Under the pieces are notes generated by a model, which was not told the origin of the DNA, made no database searches, and saw only the letters and a list, made by a program, of their open reading frames with translations. DNA of 64,000 nt, taken from positions 608,001 through 672,000 of the forward strand of contig CAVTBR010000003.1 in assembly GCA_963733055.1 (NCBI GenBank). Reading direction: 5' to 3'. How positions within the stretch are numbered: the first letter of the stretch is position 1; each line of letters starts with the position of its first letter. Below, one piece after another: positions 24,571 to 33,192 of this stretch. This DNA comes from Candidatus Bathyarchaeota archaeon. GTDB taxonomy: Archaea > Thermoproteota > Bathyarchaeia > 40CM-2-53-6. The position numbers were made by a program, and so were the translations under genes.

Positions 24571-24667
24571 TGGTGGGCCGGACCGGATTCGAACCGGCGA
24601 CCTTTGCCGTGTAAGGGCAACGTTCCAGTCGGACACGAGTCCTCTAACCAGGCTGAACTACCGGCCC
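24571..24667 (-). tRNA. tRNA-Val(TAC) with a 19-nt intron at 22/23 (24625-24643); CCA encoded
   Basis: Cloverleaf GGGCCGG...TTGCC-CTTACAC-GGCAA...CCGGCCC-ACCA; splice motif GGTT/GACT helix with AG^A and GG^A bulges. Confidence 0.95.
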
Positions 24668-25267: not shown

Positions 25268-26203
25268 ATGGGAAACGGATTGGGTGCCAAGGAACTCGTA
25301 GTCTACGTAGACGGCGAATGGTTTCCAAAGTCGAAGGCTACGGTTTCAGTCTTTGACCACGGTATGCTTTATGGCGATGGCGTCTTCGAAGGGATTCGAG
25401 TCTACAACGGCGTCATATTTCAATTCAAAGAGCACTTAGACCGACTCTACAGCTCCGCCAAATCCATCAAACTCAACATACCCCTCACCCCTCAGGACAT
25501 GACGGCCGCCGTTGTCGAGACGATCAAACGCAACTCCCTCAAGGACGCTTACATCAGGCTGGTTGTTACGAGGGGAACGGGTGACCTTGGCGTAGACCCA
25601 CGAAAATGCAAACGATCCTCGACCATCATCATCACTGAACCCGTGGACCCGTCGTATGGCGTCATCGCCAAACAGAAAGGCATCTCAGTCATCATCTCTT
25701 CTGTCCGACGGGACGCGGTAGATGCTACTACACATGAAATAAAATCACTCAATTACCTCAATAGCGTATTGGCTAAACTTGAGGCAGCGGATGCTGGCGC
25801 GGACGACGCCCTCATGCTTGACAGAGAAGGCTTCGTATCTGAGGCTACAACAACCAACCTGTTCACAGCTAAGAACGGTGACATCTTCACCCCACCCTCA
25901 ACCTCGGGCATTCTTCAAGGCGTCACTAGGAATCGAATCATACACCTAGCGAAGGACCTAGGCCATACAGTGCTAGAGAGAGGGTTAACCCCCTACGACG
26001 TGACCAATGCCGACGAAGCTTTTCTCACTGGTACTCTTTCGGAAATAGTGCCTCTCGTGAAAGTGAAAGGCATTGAAGTTGGGGACGGTAAGGTTGGGCC
26101 TCTCACGCGGAAGATCATGAGCGCCTTTGTAACCATACGCTCCAACCCGAAGGAAGGTCTCGCAGTCTACCAGGAAACCGAACGAATAATCACCCACCGC
26201 TAG
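25268..26203 (+). CDS. ilvE: Branched-chain amino acid aminotransferase
   Basis: DHGMLYGDGVFEGIR, IKSLNYLN, ILQGVTR, ADEAFLTGT. Confidence 0.96.
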   Translation: MGNGLGAKELVVYVDGEWFPKSKATVSVFDHGMLYGDGVFEGIRVYNGVIFQFKEHLDRLYSSAKSIKLNIPLTPQDMTAAVVETIKRNSLKDAYIRLVVTRGTGDLGVDPRKCKRSSTIIITEPVDPSYGVIAKQKGISVIISSVRRDAVDATTHEIKSLNYLNSVLAKLEAADAGADDALMLDREGFVSEATTTNLFTAKNGDIFTPPSTSGILQGVTRNRIIHLAKDLGHTVLERGLTPYDVTNADEAFLTGTLSEIVPLVKVKGIEVGDGKVGPLTRKIMSAFVTIRSNPKEGLAVYQETERIITHR

Positions 26204-27116
26204 ACCCGAACTTCTTCACCACCTTCCGGAAGATGAGGATGTACTGATGGTGAATGTTCGAGACAAAAGCGTAGGGCATCCCGTACGGGTATAGGTTCTT
26301 GCTATCCTGAACTAAAATCGTAATTCCCTCCAAGGTGAAACCAATCTGCTGAACGGCCTCCGATAGGTCGTTGTGGAATGACACAAACTTTGAACCGTGC
26401 CTGAAATCCGATACGACGATCACCATGTACTTTCCTTGCTTAAGCAACCGATAACATTCACCGAAAACGTGCGTTAGCTGGTCGAGAAAGTCAATATACC
26501 TTGAAGCATTTCCCAGATCTCGAATATCTTCGCTGTACTTTGTGGGCAGCCCCTTGCTCAATCGTTCCCGCTTGGATTTGTGATCTCTCGCCTTGGTGAG
26601 AATGGCCCAGTAAGGGGGACTAGTCACGACGAAGTCAAACGACTCAGAGGCTATCTGCTTCAGAAGCGTCAGGGAATCTCCCTGCAAGATTTTCAGAGCT
26701 GGCTGCTTGCTTTGTACAGCGCCGCGCTCGATAAGCTCCGTTGGGTGAGTCAAGCGAGATCTGCAGATTTTCTTCGCACGTTCAACCCGCTCATTACTGA
26801 TTACTACCCATTTTTCGACCAGTTCTATCCCTAGGCCTTCGCGGCCGGTGTTAAGACAGGCAATCAACGTCGACCCTGATCCCAAGAAAGGATCCAGCAC
26901 CTTTCCTCCTTTCTTAGTGAAAAAGAGGATTAGTTTCTCGATGTCGTTCTCCGCGTAAGTTGCGGGATGCTGTGCTTTGAGTTCATCTCGAGGAGGGGGG
27001 CGGCTTTGCCAAACACTCTTAGTGAACGTCAACCACTCTACGTTACTCAAATCGTTAAGATTGTTCCGAGCATCATAGCGCACTCGCTTCGAGATCTCTG
27101 AGTGTTTCAAGACCAT
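26190..27116 (-). CDS. Orphan DNA amino-methyltransferase (N4-C/N6-A; motif I before motif IV)
   Basis: HPAT, VLDPFLGSGST, GIEL and VVTSPPY motifs; start chosen at MVLKH (the track gives 27170). Confidence 0.9.
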   Translation of the reverse strand: MVLKHSEISKRVRYDARNNLNDLSNVEWLTFTKSVWQSRPPPRDELKAQHPATYAENDIEKLILFFTKKGGKVLDPFLGSGSTLIACLNTGREGLGIELVEKWVVISNERVERAKKICRSRLTHPTELIERGAVQSKQPALKILQGDSLTLLKQIASESFDFVVTSPPYWAILTKARDHKSKRERLSKGLPTKYSEDIRDLGNASRYIDFLDQLTHVFGECYRLLKQGKYMVIVVSDFRHGSKFVSFHNDLSEAVQQIGFTLEGITILVQDSKNLYPYGMPYAFVSNIHHQYILIFRKVVKKFGSSGG

Positions 27117-27260
27117 CTTTTTCGATTTGCCTACCGTTTTTTCCCCCGACGCGAGCGACCACTCCCACATACTAATTCCCGCGAGTTCAAGACGTGTCAG
27201 CGGAGCACCCTTGCTGGAGGCTCGCGGGCGCAGTTGTAAGCTTTCCCTCCGGTCGAACCT

Positions 27261-28085
27261 TTAGTCTTCCCTCCGTCTCCTCAAATTCAAACACATGAGG
27301 ACCACCCACCCGAATGTAACGATGACTGCGAGTGCGAACCTTGGAACAGGTTGCGGCTGACTCTCTTTGGTTGTGGACATCGTCGTCGATTTCGCGCCAA
27401 TTGCCGACATGTAGTAAGCATACGGCACGCTAAGTGGTAGAACGACATTTGTATCCCGGTTTCCCCCAGCAAGTTGATGCAACCCGTAGAGATCAAGGGT
27501 AGAAGGGTATTCGTTCGGATAGTACATGCATAACAAATCCTGGAACGGGCATGATACAGAAGATGGATAGTCTGTCAAACCAAGGGCATGCGCGAATTCG
27601 TGAAGAACCAAGAACAGTGGATCATATTTCGGTCCTTGATAGGTTAGGAGGCTCGTATCAAGGAACACAATGGCGTTGGTTATGTTGTTAGAATCATCCC
27701 ATCGGATGTGTGTGCACCCGTCAATGCCGAATGGGGTTGAAGAGCAGTAGCTGTTGACTGTCCAGTAGTCTGTGAATTCTACCTGAACGTGCGATGATTC
27801 ATTCCCGATGGCAAACGTGTAGGTTTTCCCGTTCGGAAAGTAGGTCGCCCTGAACCACGATTGCGCCTGATCCCAAATCGCAATCGCTCTCACGACAAGG
27901 TCATGAGCAACCGTTGGCGTCGAAGGTATCCGGACGTATATCAACGGACTCGGCCAACTAACCCCGAAGGTTGGGATCCAATACTGAGACTGCGGACGCG
28001 CTTGAACGAAGGGGGTAGTGAAGAATACCATCAAGAGTAGAACAGCGAGATAGAGACGCTTCTCGTTTCGCGACCAACAGCCCAA
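27261..28085 (-). CDS. Membrane-anchored zinc metalloprotease (matrixin/metzincin-like)
   Basis: Signal peptide, HEFAHALGLTD zinc motif, Met-turn-like LCMY, C-terminal TM and basic tail. Confidence 0.8.
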   Translation of the reverse strand: MGCWSRNEKRLYLAVLLLMVFFTTPFVQARPQSQYWIPTFGVSWPSPLIYVRIPSTPTVAHDLVVRAIAIWDQAQSWFRATYFPNGKTYTFAIGNESSHVQVEFTDYWTVNSYCSSTPFGIDGCTHIRWDDSNNITNAIVFLDTSLLTYQGPKYDPLFLVLHEFAHALGLTDYPSSVSCPFQDLLCMYYPNEYPSTLDLYGLHQLAGGNRDTNVVLPLSVPYAYYMSAIGAKSTTMSTTKESQPQPVPRFALAVIVTFGWVVLMCLNLRRRRED

Positions 28086-28271
28086 TTCTACCAGTTTAGC
28101 CTCCCTTTGGAATCGGAAGGATTTGTTCGTTCATCCAGGGTCGTCCTAGGATATTAGCGGGGGCTATCTCAATAGTCTTTGCCACTCAGGCCCATCAACA
28201 GCCGTGGAGTGACGGCGATGTGCTAGGGACATATCGGTCACTTGCCCAGGATAGAATGTGACAAATGAGGC

Positions 28272-28284
28272 GGTTCTGTCAAGT
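28272..28284 (+). mobile_element. IS6-like terminal repeat copy 1 (GGTTCTGTCAAGT)
   Basis: Identical 13-mer at 29294; resembles IS6-family IR consensus GG(C/T)(A/T)CTGT..AAGTT; abuts a transposase fragment. Confidence 0.55.
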
Positions 28285-28285
28285 C

Positions 28286-28549
28286 GATGGCATCAGGTTA
28301 CGGGAAGATTTCAACAACAACAAAATGGAACGTATGAACGGCGAGATCAGGGATAGAGAGCGGGTTATGCGTACGCTAGAGAAAATGGACACACCGATTC
28401 TTGCAGGTATGCGCATCTTCCACAACTACATACGACCACACCAAGCCTTGAAAGGCAAAACCCCTGCCGAAGCAGCAGGAATCAAGGTGAATGGCGAGAA
28501 CAAATGGATAACCATAATACAAAATGCCAGCAAAGAGAAACAGCACTGA
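28286..28549 (+). pseudogene. DDE transposase/integrase C-terminal fragment 1
   Basis: NNNKMERMNGEIRDRE...FHNYIRPHQALKGKTPAEAAGI...NKWITIIQNA; N-terminus and the first two catalytic acids are missing. Confidence 0.88.
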
Positions 28550-29201
28550 TGCACACAGCTTGATCTTTATCGCATTTATTCTACTATTTCTCTTAATACT
28601 CTTGATTGTCGCATTGGTCATAATCTTCGCATATATGTTGACACAAAAGGACCCAAAGACTGGTGATACTCCTTCAATCATTCTGAAAATGCGAAAGTAC
28701 GTACTACTGGCGCTTGGTGTGACCACACTGCTAATCATCAGCTTTGACTTTTACCGAGTCCCCCGTCTTGTCGAATACGGGGTCATCGGAGTTGTGGGTT
28801 TGCTTATTGGAACGTATTGGTTACGTCGAAATGCTGGAACGACTGATATTAGAAAGCTTCACTTTGATACTGACGAGTCGTTTGTTCTGCCACATTCCTT
28901 TGCGAGAACTTGCAAGGTCATCCCGACTGTTGTGACAGGTAACCATTGGAAGCTAGTCGAGAGCAACGAGGATTCAGGAGTCTTTCAAATCAAAATCGGC
29001 ATGAGCAGGAAAACATGGGGAGAAATCATGGTAGTTGATGTTACTCAAGTGAATGCAAAATCTTCCAAGGTCAATGTTCGTTGTAGCGCACAACACCAAA
29101 TCTACGACTATGGAAAGAATTATGCGGACATTACAAAATTTCATACTGCGTTGCTCAAGGAACTAGACTCAGGTAGAAAGGAAAAGGCTGATAATCAATA
29201 G
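28524..29201 (+). CDS. Passenger membrane protein 1 (3 TM plus soluble alpha/beta domain)
   Basis: 225-aa ORF overlapping the transposase tail; C-terminal WGE...V...S....YDYGKN pattern; start uncertain. Confidence 0.7.
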   Translation: MPAKRNSTDAHSLIFIAFILLFLLILLIVALVIIFAYMLTQKDPKTGDTPSIILKMRKYVLLALGVTTLLIISFDFYRVPRLVEYGVIGVVGLLIGTYWLRRNAGTTDIRKLHFDTDESFVLPHSFARTCKVIPTVVTGNHWKLVESNEDSGVFQIKIGMSRKTWGEIMVVDVTQVNAKSSKVNVRCSAQHQIYDYGKNYADITKFHTALLKELDSGRKEKADNQ

Positions 29202-29226
29202 TCCAATGATCGAAATCTAGGGGTTG

Positions 29227-29291
29227 GGTGCCGATTTTATCCAGCTACCAAAACCTAGCCTAGGTGCCGTGAACTATCCGTTACCCCCGAA
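29227..29291 (+). repeat. Conserved ~65-bp element end, copy A
   Basis: GGTGCCGATTTTATCCA...GGTGCCGTGAACTATCCGTTACCCCCGAA; matches 30884-30949. Confidence 0.85.
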
Positions 29292-29293
29292 AG

Positions 29294-29307
29294 GGTTCTG
29301 TCAAGTT
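29294..29307 (+). mobile_element. IS6-like terminal repeat copy 2 (would be the right end of the minus-strand unit)
   Basis: GGTTCTGTCAAGTT immediately after element end A. Confidence 0.55.
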
Positions 29308-29351
29308 GATGTCGGTTACTCATGTTTTTCCACCTTGTCAAGTTTCGTCGG

Positions 29352-29587
29352 CTAGAATTTGCCAAATTCGTAATTAGAAGATGTGTGTTCGTAGAATTCG
29401 AGATAGTCGCATTTGTCACATCGATAGACATCAATCTTCTTTCCTCCGATTTTATGCTCTGCAATTTCCTCGTTTCTCTGGTCAATCCAAGGAATGACGT
29501 GGGCGATGTCACTCGGAACAAGTTTGCCGCCACATTTCGGACAACGCGGTATCTCGTGATCTCGGTTGAAATGAGCTCATAATTCAT
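29352..29587 (-). CDS. Passenger 2: Zn-ribbon protein with a frameshift near 29550
   Basis: ATG abuts the transposase-tail stop; the alternative frame reads RCPKCGGKLVP...IDVYRCDKCDYLEFYEH...stop 29352. Confidence 0.65.
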
Positions 29588-29668
29588 CTACTCCAAACTC
29601 TCCTTTCGAGCGGCGTTCTGTATTAGCGTTATCCACTTGTTCTGCCCTTCAACACTGATTCCTGCTGC
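29588..29668 (-). pseudogene. DDE transposase C-terminal fragment 2 (inverted)
   Basis: Manual translation AAGISVEGQNKWITLIQNAARKESLE*. Confidence 0.85.
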
Positions 29669-29669
29669 G

Positions 29670-29855
29670 AAAGCAGACACACCGATCTTAACAGGCATGC
29701 AAATTTTTCACAACTATCTACGGCCCCATGAGGCTTTGAATGGAAGAACACCCAGCGAGGCTGCGGGAATCAAGGTTGAAGGAGAGAACAAATGGATAAC
29801 CATAATACAAAACGCATCAAAGGAAGGAACCAACGACGATTCGAAGTCTTCATAG
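29670..29855 (+). pseudogene. DDE transposase C-terminal fragment 3
   Basis: KADTPILTGMQIFHNYLRPHEALNGRTPSEAAGIKVEGENKWITIIQNAS; paralogous to fragment 1. Confidence 0.88.
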
Positions 29856-30869
29856 ATGCGACTTGTTACTTGCAAAAATTGCGGAGCCAAGGTCAGCGAC
29901 CAATACAGCTATTGTACGATATGTCAAGCTCCAATTAGTGCAGCTGCAATCGCGTCGAGCACTGAGACACGTGAACGCCGCCAAACACTGATTGAATCTG
30001 TGTATCTGCCAAAGAAACCCACGCCTGACCCAAAGACTTCCATTGAGCCGAAGAGACCCCAACGGCGTAGATGGAATTACGCAAGAAGTTCAGCCTCAAG
30101 AGGCAAACCAACAACTCACGGAGAACTTGCGATTCTGAATCAATCCTTATCAGGCATCGCAGCAAATCCCGTGATCTTGACTCCCGCCCTAGTTTCCGCG
30201 CTTAACGGCGTCCTGTTGTTATTTCTCATTGCAAGAACAACTCAAGCTTCTCAGGGAACAGAGATGTCACAAATCATTTGGGGCATCATCCCTTTGTTGT
30301 TTGTCAGTTTGTTCGTTGGTTTCCTCGTTACCATAGGCTTGGCATCTATGTCAGTGAATATCGTGATGGAGGGAAAATGCAACTTTTCTGATTGGGTGAC
30401 TGGTGTGAGAGAGTACTTTTGGAGGATACTGAACATATCGATTGTGGTCGGGATTCTCTTGGTAGTCGTTTTTGGAGGCATCTCATTGGTGCTACCCTTG
30501 GCAATCAAAGGGTTGGTTTTGAATCTGGTCGACGCTGGAACTATTTTGTTCTTGAACGTCTGTTATGCAGCAATTATGATTAGTGACGCGACTTTGCGAT
30601 CAGCGATAAATCTTGGGTTGAAAACTATCCGGATGTATTCACGAACATTCATAGGTTTCTCTCTTTTGCTCTTTGCTGTATTAGAGGTTAGGGCGATCCT
30701 TGAAGTTGGTTGGACAGGAAGTGAATCACTTTCTGTTTTGGTCTCACTGGGCATGAATGTACCGATGATAATGTATGCTGTGATGCAAGGCTTCTTGTGG
30801 CCGATATGGTCTTTGCTCAGCTCCACTCTCTATCGCAACTTTTCATTTCCGCAGGCTACAATGAAGTAA
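29856..30869 (+). CDS. Passenger 3: N-terminal Zn ribbon plus multi-TM membrane protein
   Basis: CKNCG...YCTICQ followed by about six hydrophobic helices; ATG abuts the transposase-tail TAG. Confidence 0.8.
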   Translation: MRLVTCKNCGAKVSDQYSYCTICQAPISAAAIASSTETRERRQTLIESVYLPKKPTPDPKTSIEPKRPQRRRWNYARSSASRGKPTTHGELAILNQSLSGIAANPVILTPALVSALNGVLLLFLIARTTQASQGTEMSQIIWGIIPLLFVSLFVGFLVTIGLASMSVNIVMEGKCNFSDWVTGVREYFWRILNISIVVGILLVVVFGGISLVLPLAIKGLVLNLVDAGTILFLNVCYAAIMISDATLRSAINLGLKTIRMYSRTFIGFSLLLFAVLEVRAILEVGWTGSESLSVLVSLGMNVPMIMYAVMQGFLWPIWSLLSSTLYRNFSFPQATMK

Positions 30870-30883
30870 CCGTGAGCAACTTC

Positions 30884-30949
30884 GGTGACGGTTTTATCCA
30901 CCGCCCTAAATCCTGCTTGGGTGACGTGAACTATCCGTTACCCCCCGAA
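30884..30949 (+). repeat. Conserved ~65-bp element end, copy B
   Basis: GGTGACGGTTTTATCCA...GGTGACGTGAACTATCCGTTACCCCCCGAA. Confidence 0.85.
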
Positions 30950-31046
30950 GAAAGCCTCTTGAGAGAGAACGCAAGAAACGGATACTAGGCACAATCCCAG
31001 AAACGGCTAGAGTAATTCTGGGAGAATACCTAGCCAAGAATGAAGC

Positions 31047-31598
31047 TTGAAAGAGCTCATATCCTCTTACAAGGATTGGTGGCACTCACGATTTGTAGGT
31101 ATCCTATTCATTGCCTTTTCGTTCTCTGCTTTGGACCAAGGAATAACTGCCGTATCAAACGAGGTTATTGTCTCTGCTGAAATGCGTCAAATGGCTAATA
31201 GTACAAGCACTAATGGCACAAGCACGCTTCATCTTCAGGCCACCTCAAGTCTTCCTCTCTGGCCCAGCATTCTTTCGTTCACGATATTGCTAGTTTCATT
31301 GTTCGTGTTTTATCGTGTTGGAAATTCTGTTGACTTGAAGAACAACTATCTCCGCGTTGCCGTCTGCTTGTTTGTTGGTGGCAGTTTGGGCGGAAATTTC
31401 GGCCTTATAGTCGTACCGATGCTGATGATGTTCAGCGAATGTTCACTGGGATTGGCAACAGGGTGTTCCTTTGGTAATTTTCTGGTGCTTCCACTGTTGG
31501 TCATTCTCGAACCTCTCTCGCTTGGGTACGCCTTGAGTATGTTGTTTCGTGGCTTCTTCGCAATTGCTCTAGCCAATTTCAGAAAGAAACCCACGTAG
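31047..31598 (+). CDS. Hypothetical multi-TM membrane protein
   Basis: 183-aa hydrophobic ORF; TTG start overlaps the TGA of an upstream truncated ORF. Confidence 0.7.
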   Translation: MKELISSYKDWWHSRFVGILFIAFSFSALDQGITAVSNEVIVSAEMRQMANSTSTNGTSTLHLQATSSLPLWPSILSFTILLVSLFVFYRVGNSVDLKNNYLRVAVCLFVGGSLGGNFGLIVVPMLMMFSECSLGLATGCSFGNFLVLPLLVILEPLSLGYALSMLFRGFFAIALANFRKKPT

Positions 31599-31669
31599 GC
31601 CAAATGAGCCGACAGTTAACGAGCAGATTTTCTTGGCCCATGAGCTAACAAGTTAACGTTACCACGGCG

Positions 31670-31684
31670 GTAAAGATTTATACC
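31670..31684 (+). promoter_or_regulatory. BRE-TATA promoter of htpX
   Basis: gtaaagaTTTATAcc, with a GGTGA SD at ~31714. Confidence 0.55.
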
Positions 31685-31725
31685 GGACTGTTACTTGAGG
31701 TAACAAAACTGCTGGTGAGTTAGGG

Positions 31726-32610
31726 ATGGTTTGGACGTTCATCAAAACTACTCTCTTAGTCGGTATCCTAACGGGCATACTGTTCGCCGTTGCTTACCTA
31801 ATGGGGTTAAACCCGATCGTAGCCTTGGGTTTCGCTGCAATCATGAACTTGATAATCTACTGGTTCAGCGACCGAATAGTTCTCCGAATGGGCCGCGCGA
31901 ATGTTGTGGGCGAGGAGGAAGCGCCGCGCGTCTATGCCGCTCTTCGAAGGCTCAACGTGGCCTCTGGAACTCCGATGCCGAAGGTTGCACTTGTGAATAG
32001 CCCTGTGCCGAACGCTTTCGCGACCGGCCGAAGCCCAAGCAAAGCCACAGTGGCAGTCCACACGGGCCTCTTGAGTATAGTTAACGATGAAGAGTTAGAG
32101 GGCGTGCTCGCACACGAACTCACCCACGTTAAGCACTGGGATACATTGACGATGACGATCGCAGCCACAGTCGCAGGTGCCATCACGTACCTTGCGCAGT
32201 GGGGATGGTTCTTTGGCGGCGCTTTCGGGGGCGGCGGTTACGGCAGAAGTAGGCAGCAGGGAAGTCTGATCGGCTTACTGTTCATGCTCGTCCTCGCACC
32301 CTTCGCCGCTATGCTAGTGCAACTCGCGGTTTCCCGCACGCGCGAATACTCCGCCGATGAAGGCGGAGCTAAGCTCTCAGGGAAACCCTTGGCGCTTGCT
32401 AGTGCGCTCGAAAAAATTGAGTACGCGGCTAGAAGCCGAAAGCCCAGTACAAACGCAAACCCAGCACTATCATCACTCTACATCATCAACCCCTTTAGAG
32501 GTTCCATGATGGCACAACTTTTCTCAACCCACCCCGCGACAGAGAAGCGGATTGCAAAGTTGCAACAGATCGCGGGCAACATGGGCTACGGATCATATTA
32601 CAGGCAATAA
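31726..32610 (+). CDS. htpX: Membrane zinc metalloprotease HtpX (M48)
   Basis: PNAFATGR, AHELTH, SRTREYSAD, FSTHP motifs. Confidence 0.96.
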   Translation: MVWTFIKTTLLVGILTGILFAVAYLMGLNPIVALGFAAIMNLIIYWFSDRIVLRMGRANVVGEEEAPRVYAALRRLNVASGTPMPKVALVNSPVPNAFATGRSPSKATVAVHTGLLSIVNDEELEGVLAHELTHVKHWDTLTMTIAATVAGAITYLAQWGWFFGGAFGGGGYGRSRQQGSLIGLLFMLVLAPFAAMLVQLAVSRTREYSADEGGAKLSGKPLALASALEKIEYAARSRKPSTNANPALSSLYIINPFRGSMMAQLFSTHPATEKRIAKLQQIAGNMGYGSYYRQ

Positions 32611-32628
32611 CCGTAGCCAAGCACGAAA

Positions 32629-33192
32629 TCAGTCAAGAATGGCTACTGCACGTACGGGAGAAGTCGGAGCTTTCGCCTTCAACGGAAACGCCGCTAGTTT
32701 GAATCTCGGAACATCTACCTCATCGAGGTTACATAACCCCTCCAAAATTAGGATCCCCTTGCTTAGCAGTGTAAGGTGCGCTGGCAAGTCATGGGACGTT
32801 GAGTTATCGATGCTGGGGGTATCTATTGCGACCATGCCGACGCGCTTGAATTCGAGATATTGAGCGGCGTTCTCGCTAAGATATGCGTAAGGCTTAACGG
32901 CGCCACCCGTGTGAATAATAGCAACCTCTCTCTCCCTAAGGGATAATCCAGCCGCTTCCTCAGCCGCCTCCAAATCCTCATCATCCACAGCTTCACCAGG
33001 CTTCGTGTGGCTTAGATCGAGAATTACTGCGTCAGAGAAGAAATACTCCAATCCGAAGTCACTGATCGCCTTCTGATTCTTCAGCAAATAGGCCGGTGCG
33101 TCGAGATGCGTACCCGCATGTGAGTCCTTGGCAAACTCGTCTAACGAGAACTTGATGGATAAGTCGACTATCTGCATGAGTGCATCCGTCAA
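32629..33192 (-). CDS. Cyclase family protein (kynurenine formamidase-like)
   Basis: HAGTHLDAP, IDTPSID, ILEGLCNL, SPVRAVA motifs. Confidence 0.88.
   Translation of the reverse strand: MTDALMQIVDLSIKFSLDEFAKDSHAGTHLDAPAYLLKNQKAISDFGLEYFFSDAVILDLSHTKPGEAVDDEDLEAAEEAAGLSLREREVAIIHTGGAVKPYAYLSENAAQYLEFKRVGMVAIDTPSIDNSTSHDLPAHLTLLSKGILILEGLCNLDEVDVPRFKLAAFPLKAKAPTSPVRAVAILD

Follow-up and report, generated by a model that had tools for sequence, protein, structure and literature searches.

A decayed array of IS6-like cargo transposons and derived cassettes upstream of htpX in a Candidatus Bathyarchaeota genome

Upstream of htpX in a Candidatus Bathyarchaeota archaeon, three diverged transposase C-termini lie close together, each next to a different and unrelated gene. 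How such a stack of transposase tails and passengers was built, and what had moved the passengers, is the question that this locus raises. It lies in the window analyzed here, a stretch of 64,000 nucleotides (contig CAVTBR010000003.1, positions 608,001 to 672,000), and all coordinates without a prefix are positions in this window. An initial annotation, made from the letters alone, had proposed a gene-capture system that carries its passengers in one variable slot between the transposase stop and a conserved end, and that leaves an integron-like array behind. Our analysis gives strong grounds to regard positions 28272-31663 as a decayed array of at least four units of an archaeal family of IS6-like cargo transposons, with the family anatomy and the preference for GTTACC-adjacent targets described below. 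The array is real and well delimited, and is made up of an IS6-like transporter transposon and the cassettes derived from it.

Composition of the array

Positions 28272-31663 contain three 3' fragments of the transposase and four transposon ends, and the four passenger genes found there all differ from one another. Fragment w1 belongs to a 94-amino-acid open reading frame (ORF) on the plus strand (28265-28549) and aligns by tblastn with residues 296-382 of a 390-amino-acid copy (68% identity); its rve_3 match (E = 3.1e-5) stays below the cutoff, and the first two catalytic acidic residues are absent. Fragment w2 on the minus strand (29588-29668; ORF 29588-29698) keeps the last ~27 residues (tblastn residues 361-383), fragment w3 on the plus strand (29669-29855; ORF 29637-29855) keeps the last ~62 (tblastn residues 330-381), and these two are joined head to head. 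The peptide AAGI.V.G.NKWIT.IQNA, noticed in the initial annotation, was confirmed in the ORFs of all three fragments. At the DNA level, w3 and w1 form a direct repeat of 147 nt (76% identity), and w2 forms inverted repeats of 56-57 nt with the plus-strand fragments (79-82% identity).

The array starts with a partial inverted repeat, X1 (28272-28289, plus strand), whose 18 nt are 94% identical to 29294-29311. X1 represents the tip of an end that shares its type and orientation with 29294-29356, and it is fused to w1; by eye, a gapped likeness perhaps extends ~15 further nt. Overlapping the stop of w1 is cargo gene 1 (28524-29201, plus strand), an ORF for a 225-amino-acid membrane protein, after which unit A is closed by a right inverted repeat (IR) on the minus strand (29224-29285; tip at 29285; IR profile E = 2.1e-8 and 1.3e-6). 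This end has two subterminal CGGCACC sites and aligns with the ends of intact elements. Across an 8-bp spacer, CCCGAAAG (29286-29293), its tip faces that of inverted repeat X2 (29294-29356, plus strand; tip at 29294; IR profile E = 7.8e-4 and 2.1e-3), which is the right end of a minus-strand unit and belongs to a separate lineage with a GGTTCTG tip and GTCGG sites. Cargo gene 2, a Zn-ribbon protein gene (29352-29581, minus strand) that is frameshifted near 29548 in the assembly, lies between X2 and w2. Beyond the head-to-head joint, w3 is abutted, TAG then ATG, by cargo gene 3 (29856-30869, plus strand), whose 337-amino-acid product combines an N-terminal Zn ribbon with a multi-pass membrane domain. 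The right IR of unit B follows (30881-30942, minus strand; tip at 30942; IR profile E = 5.6e-7 and 9.7e-4), with CGTCACC sites. The ends of units A and B are shared as a direct repeat of 70 nt (29224-29293 and 30881-30950, 79% identity), so the end of ~65 bp on which the initial annotation had relied is indeed common to both units and is the right IR of the family.

A fourth unit was detected in addition. It consists of cargo gene 4 (31047-31598, plus strand), an ORF for a 183-amino-acid membrane protein with no transposase remnant upstream, and the right IR of unit D (31604-31663, minus strand; tip at 31663; IR profile E = 0.11, 0.006 and 7e-4). This end represents a third lineage with GCTCA sites, and its first 26 nt almost match an end adjoining hsp20 in a related genome (G016). 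Unit D, the full IR at 29294-29356 and the partial IR at 28272-28289 are additions to the initial annotation. By site type, the ends of the window therefore fall into three lineages: one of A and B, one of X, and one of D. On its promoter-proximal side, the array is bordered by the 8-bp target ACGGCGGT (31664-31671), followed on the plus strand by the htpX promoter motif, TTTATA and then a GTTAC-N5-GTAAC palindrome (31677-31704), which is conserved upstream of htpX across the genus, and by htpX itself (31726-32610; M48 protease, PF01435, 123.2 bits). We also observed an 18-nt inverted repeat with a 13-nt loop (30985-31033) in the stretch that separates cargo gene 4 from the end of unit B, and Rfam gave no match in 26000-33000.

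As to the claim that every transposase tail is directly followed by its passenger, the overlap with the membrane protein ORF and the TAG-ATG abutment stood, and the minus-strand unit did not fit: the ATG abutting w2 opens a frame other than that of the Zn-ribbon protein, whose ORF begins 6 nt further. A soil metagenome contig has one base fewer at 29548, which yields an open Zn-ribbon ORF of 75 amino acids, so the extra base reflects either a genuine frameshift or a fault of the assembly. All Zn-ribbon Pfam matches of cargo gene 2 were sub-threshold. This one-base difference, together with the repeats of 56-147 nt and 76-82% identity within 1.5 kb, would also be compatible with a chimeric assembly of repeated transposon pieces. 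We regard such a chimera as extremely unlikely. An assembler would not be misled by repeats of this divergence, similar arrays occur in many genomes, and three contigs from one soil run match the locus with at least 99% identity (28401-28606, 29504-29692 and part of cargo gene 3), bridging both the joint of the w1 tail with cargo gene 1 and the head-to-head joint of w2 and w3.

Transposase, ends and passengers of the family

The window contains no full-length transposase, as the initial annotation had stated, and four full-length copies of ~380 residues each are found elsewhere in the source genome (G000, 2.88 Mb in 3 contigs). The source-genome copies combine a DDE_Tnp_IS240 domain above threshold with a SWIM finger and a zinc ribbon; in two of them PF13610 scored 53.8 and 49.3 bits (cutoff 27), which identifies an IS240-type catalytic domain. 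Among the NCBIfam models of insertion sequence (IS) families IS6 scored best, the next being IS1 with 48-49 bits, and the best tblastn matches in plasmids were ISCpe7-family IS6 transposases (27% identity). Public data hold 5079 homologous proteins at E <= 1e-10, of which the named ones are labelled Candidatus Bathyarchaeia, and among the relatives sampled the family occurs in 19 of 22 genus genomes and is rare outside the genus. The fourth copy of the source genome (C2:143983-146652) is 58% identical to the others, and neither family ends nor the small ORF described below were detected with it; an inverted tail of 27 residues lies opposite it 1.2 kb downstream, and this copy may represent a separate sub-family with different ends.

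The four copies are only ~70% identical, and their DNA similarity ends right after the IQNA codons. The same holds for all 15 tails compared, in which the stop codon already lies within variable DNA. Taken alone, this would suggest that the element ends there and that the genes behind the tails are host genes beside independent insertions, with no cargo involved; the finding of the 70-nt motif only twice in the genome by short-word blastn points in the same direction. We consider this explanation highly improbable, since identical copies in relatives show otherwise. One relative (G011) carries two 100% identical copies of 2748 bp with different flanking 8-bp duplications, and another (G017) carries an inverted pair of 2673 bp with 99.9% identity. 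These copies extend beyond the transposase by ~1.1-1.3 kb on the upstream side and by 0.3-0.5 kb on the downstream side, and they end in inverted repeats starting GGTAACG. In the G011 element, non-transposase ORFs on both sides of the transposase are included in the identical 2748 bp. Passenger genes inside the ends thus move together with the ends.

The ends themselves could be recognized as a family by a profile. A blastn-short search with the 70-nt end had returned the two window copies only, and it took the profile to reveal further members, 69 ends at E < 0.01 in the source genome and the fetched loci, four of them in the window. Against ~3.3 Mb, the window ends scored E = 1.3e-6, 2.1e-3, 9.7e-4 and 7e-4 and are not chance matches. 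The 56 distinct ends that were aligned share one two-part architecture of ~62 nt, in which the tip is GG, a site of 7-8 nt lies ~16 nt inward and recurs ~40 nt further on, and the middle contains TGT. The subterminal site differs among lineages, 54 of the 56 start with GG, and the common tips GGTAACG and GGTTCTG both have G at position 7. In line with the initial annotation, the end is tied to this transposase elsewhere: three of the four full-length copies in the source genome are bracketed by family ends, which lie beyond the downstream genes, and so are many copies in relatives. Nearly half of the ends (32 of 69) pair with another end exactly 8 bp off, giving 16 joints, one of which is the window spacer CCCGAAAG.

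To describe the intact elements, 14 elements and one more were examined; for two of the 14, one of the limits could not be placed, leaving 13 two-ended elements. The order was the same in all: left end, variable slot 1, an ORF of 60-64 amino acids, transposase, variable slot 2, right end. Their lengths range from 2644 to 4966 bp, with 2-7 ORFs besides the transposase, and in 12 of the 13 two-ended transposase-bearing elements the two flanking 8-mers are identical. The single slot of the initial annotation thus has to be replaced by two, the second lying between the left end and the small conserved gene. This small ORF (for example L004:2704-2883, L002:2714-2902 and L025:2739-2930) is divergent from the transposase, that is, read in the opposite direction, with a mean column identity of 71% over 13 copies. 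Its product is predicted to form three helices (pLDDT 89.8); no Pfam family, no PDB sequence below E = 0.7, and no fold match at E <= 0.001 was obtained for it.

Cassettes bounded by family ends and devoid of a transposase are also present in the source genome (n = 3). They carry a 298-amino-acid secreted-looking protein (C2:525959-527184), a 258-amino-acid protein (C2:28016-29021), and a 114-amino-acid ORF, the last in a cassette of only 585 bp (C2:505890-506474) with the perfect 8-bp duplication CCAGTATG on both sides.

The cargo was collected as non-overlapping ORFs of at least 80 amino acids outside the core genes in 36 element or array regions. The resulting 107 distinct proteins fell into 96 clusters, 88 of them singletons. 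A Pfam scan of 97 of these proteins, leaving out one wrong-frame ORF and nine others, assigned a family at E <= 1e-4 to 22, including Usp, glyoxalase, GST, PIN, HEPN, V4R, ArsR, TauE, peptidases and a methyltransferase. By a crude hydropathy test on partly related and thus non-independent sequences, transmembrane-like segments were found in 64 of 107 cargo proteins and in 107 of 436 control ORFs of matched length (odds ratio 4.6). The passengers are variable as had been claimed: the DNA from the transposase stop to the right end is not shared by any two delimited intact elements, and in the closest element pair (85% identity) the common DNA is restricted to the small ORF and the transposase.

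The window genes fit this diversity. Cargo gene 1 has no Pfam family at E <= 1e-4, occurs in none of the 22 other genus genomes, and has one relative (63% identity) among 5.8 billion proteins. Cargo gene 4 likewise lacks a Pfam family and was found in none of the 22 genomes. Cargo gene 3 gave sub-threshold matches to DUF7577 and Zn ribbons; a word-indexed search returned only the protein itself, and an exhaustive search returned 47 distant relatives with up to 43% identity, among them a protein with DUF7847, so this gene is not an orphan. Gene capture is only a putative origin of the passengers. Relic ends lie inside slots (L075:3285, E = 0.002; L064:7613, weak, E = 0.046), which suggests that cargo partly accrues by fusion of neighboring elements into a patchwork.

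Landing sites, turnover and history

Orthologues of htpX are present in 15 of the 22 other genus genomes, and 14 were examined. The order is conserved: a branched-chain aminotransferase gene (BCAT), a variable stretch, and htpX. In four of the 14 (G017, G010, G001 and G011) the gap between BCAT and htpX is only 110-264 nt; the insertion site is empty in three relatives, and G010 retains an end tip by eye. One intact element of 3588 bp stands before htpX in G021 with CAGGCGCT on both sides, a perfect 8-bp duplication of the promoter-proximal 8-mer. Other arrays or remnants occupy the site in G019, G002, G006, G014 and G018, and other DNA, in which no ends were detected, is found in G013, G015, G016 and G022. 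In seven of 15 genomes including the source (the others being G019, G021, G006, G010, G014 and G002), the htpX TATA box is preceded by an end tip at a distance of exactly 8 bp plus 5 nt, and these tips are of differing lineages. The closest relative, G019, has flanks 83-85% identical to the window up to 28224 and from 31653 on, and between these positions a transposase tail is all that the two have in common, which means that the array has been fully turned over since the species split. Repeated insertion at this locus, postulated in the initial annotation, is thus borne out by relatives with different lineages, one intact element, or an empty site.

A second hot spot was found at hsp20. Nine of the 16 joints have the spacer TTACGTAA, and this 8-mer sits in front of hsp20 (Pfam HSP20). 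The gene is present in 18 genomes, 12 of which have an end (E < 0.01) whose tip precedes the start codon by 57-78 nt; transposase sequence lies within 1.4 kb of the gene in 12 of the 18, directed toward it in nine. Even among three very close relatives, whose hsp20 genes are 95% identical, the ends at this position are of different lineages. Within one genome, the joints of the hsp20 array all share that genome's own variant of the 8-mer, which is the outcome expected of repeated insertion into a target renewed by duplication.

The htpX and hsp20 promoters both consist of TTTATA followed by GTTAC-N5-GTAAC, an arrangement present three times in the source genome and occupied twice. In the case of hsp20, a second GTTAC-N5-GTAAC just upstream of the TATA box is made up by the final six bases of the end, the 8-mer and the base that follows, and a similar native sequence is seen at apparently unoccupied sites (hsp20 in G002 and G003, htpX in G017). 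The third site of the source genome (C1:383040-383095) has a second palindrome directly upstream of its TATA box and is unoccupied; here the half-site is followed by G, not C, and the downstream reading frame looks short or broken. Archaeal heat-shock repressors, for example Phr, bind palindromes at hsp20-type promoters according to passages of PMC10746257. By analogy, GTTAC-N5-GTAAC may be a heat-shock operator of the Phr-like kind. A more far-reaching idea, which we offer tentatively and consider doubtful, is that the tip GTTACC copies a stress-operator half-site and steers the element beside the TATA box of hsp20 or htpX, where it would rebuild the operator. Such self-renewing landing pads would be an archaeal, transposase-driven counterpart of integrons that stores ever-changing genes for small membrane proteins, and the same repressor might then link transposition or cargo expression to stress.

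The accumulation of units at one promoter-adjacent point, the existence of single-gene cassettes between repeats, and the extreme diversity of the cargo could also be ascribed to a dedicated integron-like platform, in which cassettes of one gene each are placed at a fixed promoter-side position by a site-specific recombinase. Such a platform is very unlikely in our judgment, as no integrase family was found among the 10 ORFs of 26190-32610 at E <= 0.1, the limits of the cassettes are transposon IRs with 8-bp duplications, the only linked recombinase is a DDE transposase, and cargo faces either way relative to the promoter. The integron likeness seen in the initial annotation is therefore an analogy only, and the machinery is DDE transposition.

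The initial annotation had further assumed loss of the transposase 5' part, and in that 3' fragments do dominate. Counting the source genome and the fetched loci, which were selected around full copies and the two hot spots, there are 32 full-length transposases, 35 3' fragments, four internal fragments and one 5' fragment; the source genome alone has four full-length copies, 12 3' fragments, two internal fragments and no 5' fragment. One copy with an internal deletion, joining residues 5-47 to 340-381, was also noticed (G021:C118:22742-22972). Several explanations of the tails were tried and rejected. Retention of tails for co-oriented cargo was dropped because, over all loci, truncated copies (20 plus, 9 minus, 5 none) compare with full copies (15, 9, 5), in counts based on crude ORF picking; in the source genome alone, all truncated units had looked co-oriented. 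The conserved tail is no second internal end, given that the 5' limits range from residue 195 to 361. A short 3' fragment acting as a mini-element inside another copy is contradicted by the flanking 8-mers, which differ in the window by eye, and orphan C-terminus cassettes in the style of polymorphic toxins by transposase variation that is limited to a few residues. Head-to-head joints of inverted 3' fragments occur at four loci (window 29668/29669; L060:7062-7066; L064:10228-10240; L077:7051-7052), and one partner always starts at residues 330-335.

These joints, and the neighbors in inverted and direct orientation, are also what one might expect of IS26-style events, i.e., cointegrates, translocatable units, and adjacent deletions or inversions, with the passengers once located between whole IS copies. 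The family is IS6-like with 8-bp duplications, and IS6 members are known to produce such rearrangements, as passages of the IS6 review describe (PMC7986276). We nevertheless judge this origin unlikely. Intact members hold their cargo inside one pair of ends and move it jointly, no whole IS copies flank the window cargo as in a pseudo-compound transposon, and truncation by adjacent deletion from a neighbor's end, which predicts an outward-facing tip before the truncated copies, was rejected on finding none at the 5' joints of 33 fragments.

Returning to the cargo transposon family, whose anatomy, duplications, hot spots and turnover between species are shown by the data above, we infer the following history. 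Members would preferentially insert exactly 8 bp from a GTTACC-like sequence, which may be the tip of a resident relative or the palindrome half-site beside the hsp20 or htpX TATA box; each insertion would recreate the target, so that elements pile up. At least three lineages would have landed at the htpX site, usually with the right end pointing at the host promoter and the newest element promoter-proximal. Later deletions would then have removed the left parts, leaving units of transposase tail, cargo and right end. These silencing deletions would extend only away from the host gene, perhaps because deletions in the other direction would hit htpX. The ends of the window are unlike those of the genome's intact copies, so its units can probably no longer move and would be the remains of at least three separate landings.

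Several observations weigh against this account or complicate it. With the curated IS6 model NF033587 the scores were 96.9 and 110.8 bits, below its cutoff of 125. No transposase of the source genome is associated with ends of the A/B, X or D lineage. The inner spacer CCCGAAAG is unlike the promoter-proximal 8-mer ACGGCGGT, in contrast to the hsp20 arrays, so the window array was not built by simple reuse of one target; together with the partial end fused to w1, this difference indicates a history more complex than simple stacking. Among four insertions with clean duplications off the hot spots, TACC lies next to the target in only two, and the targeting is thus a preference rather than a rule. 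No common feature was found at the 5' joints of 33 truncated copies. The soil run that bridges two of the joints may itself be the source of the assembly.

Farther upstream in the variable BCAT-htpX interval, positions 26190-28085 hold a DNA methyltransferase gene (PF01555) and a gene for a 274-amino-acid membrane-anchored protein. Both are absent in the four short-gap genomes and present in G019 and G013, the methylase of G013 being broken, and G016 has the methylase only. No transposon ends were detected next to these genes, which may be older cargo or a separate island. The one tRNA found, a tRNA-Gly(TCC) outside the array (24571-24667), was called at 97 nt, longer than a standard tRNA, and may hold an intron. 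A sigma-70 promoter and terminator scan, a type of scan that leaves archaeal promoters uncovered, gave counts at or below the shuffle means.

Comparison with known systems

IS6-type elements have been regarded as minimal, and here a large archaeal branch routinely carries two slots with highly diverse, membrane-rich and mostly unknown genes and stacks at defined sites beside promoters, which offers a route for accessory-gene shuffling in uncultured soil archaea. It also provides an example from nature of DDE transposition that is directed by sequence and restores the target it uses. In the literature searched on IS6 passengers, archaeal insertion cassettes and Bathyarchaeota transposases, we found no description of this family. 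New here are the hot spots at promoters, the match of the tip to a palindrome half-site, the array turnover at species level, and the strong bias toward 3' fragments. The ends, 8-bp joints and hot spots can serve as recognizable landmarks for novel archaeal accessory genes, and they would correct the annotation of regions currently described only as "DDE-type integrase/transposase" or "hypothetical".

The nearest known systems are IS6/IS26 elements, among which Varani et al. (2021, PMC7986276) describe clades with long zinc-finger transposases, ISCpe7-like and clades h and i. The family shares with them the DDE_Tnp_IS240 domain, an N-terminal zinc-finger extension and 8-bp duplications. PMC6807381 gives GG at the start and G at position 7 of IS6/IS26 terminal inverted repeats; the common tips here likewise have both, and some lineages also show a TGT and CAA-type motif like those known from IS6. 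In contrast to the 14-20 bp of IS6/IS26 ends (15-20 bp in the IS6 review, PMC7986276), those of this family are ~62 nt long with two subterminal repeats. IS6/IS26 elements are compact and contain the transposase gene only (0.7-0.9 kb, up to ~1.7 kb), while these span 2.6-5.0 kb with two slots and a small gene, and they differ further in their preference for 8 bp from a GTTACC-like site. Harmer and Hall question whether the archaeal and long-transposase members belong in the IS6 family at all. Within IS6, ISDsp3 is the single member named with a passenger gene in the IS6 review (PMC7986276). By that description, it likewise combines an IS6-type transposase and a non-transposition gene inside its ends, whereas here passengers are the rule, fill two slots, and differ in nearly every copy.

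Integrons resemble the array in the ordered build-up of small, diverse, mostly unknown genes at one promoter-side site. They differ in mechanism: no integrase was found among the ORFs of 26190-32610, the borders are explained by transposon ends, and insertion occurs by transposition with target duplication. Moreover, the cargo orientation is not fixed here, and the promoter next to the array serves the host gene rather than the cassettes.

A better fit is given by two ISfinder terms, "mobile insertion cassette" (MIC) and "transporter IS", IS231 with MIC231 being an example of the former. In these, as in the family described here, IS ends bracket non-transposition genes with or without a transposase, and both forms occur among our elements. 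What sets the present family apart is its archaeal host, its IS6-like backbone, and the stacking of its cassettes at promoter hot spots.

Finally, repeated insertion at a set distance from a recognized sequence is shared with site-seeking transposons: Tn7 inserts at attTn7, and elements of the IS1202 group reportedly abut XerCD sites. The common outcome is safe landing sites and tandem arrays. In the family described here, by contrast, the recognized sequence is similar to the tip of the element itself and forms one half-site of a stress-gene promoter palindrome.

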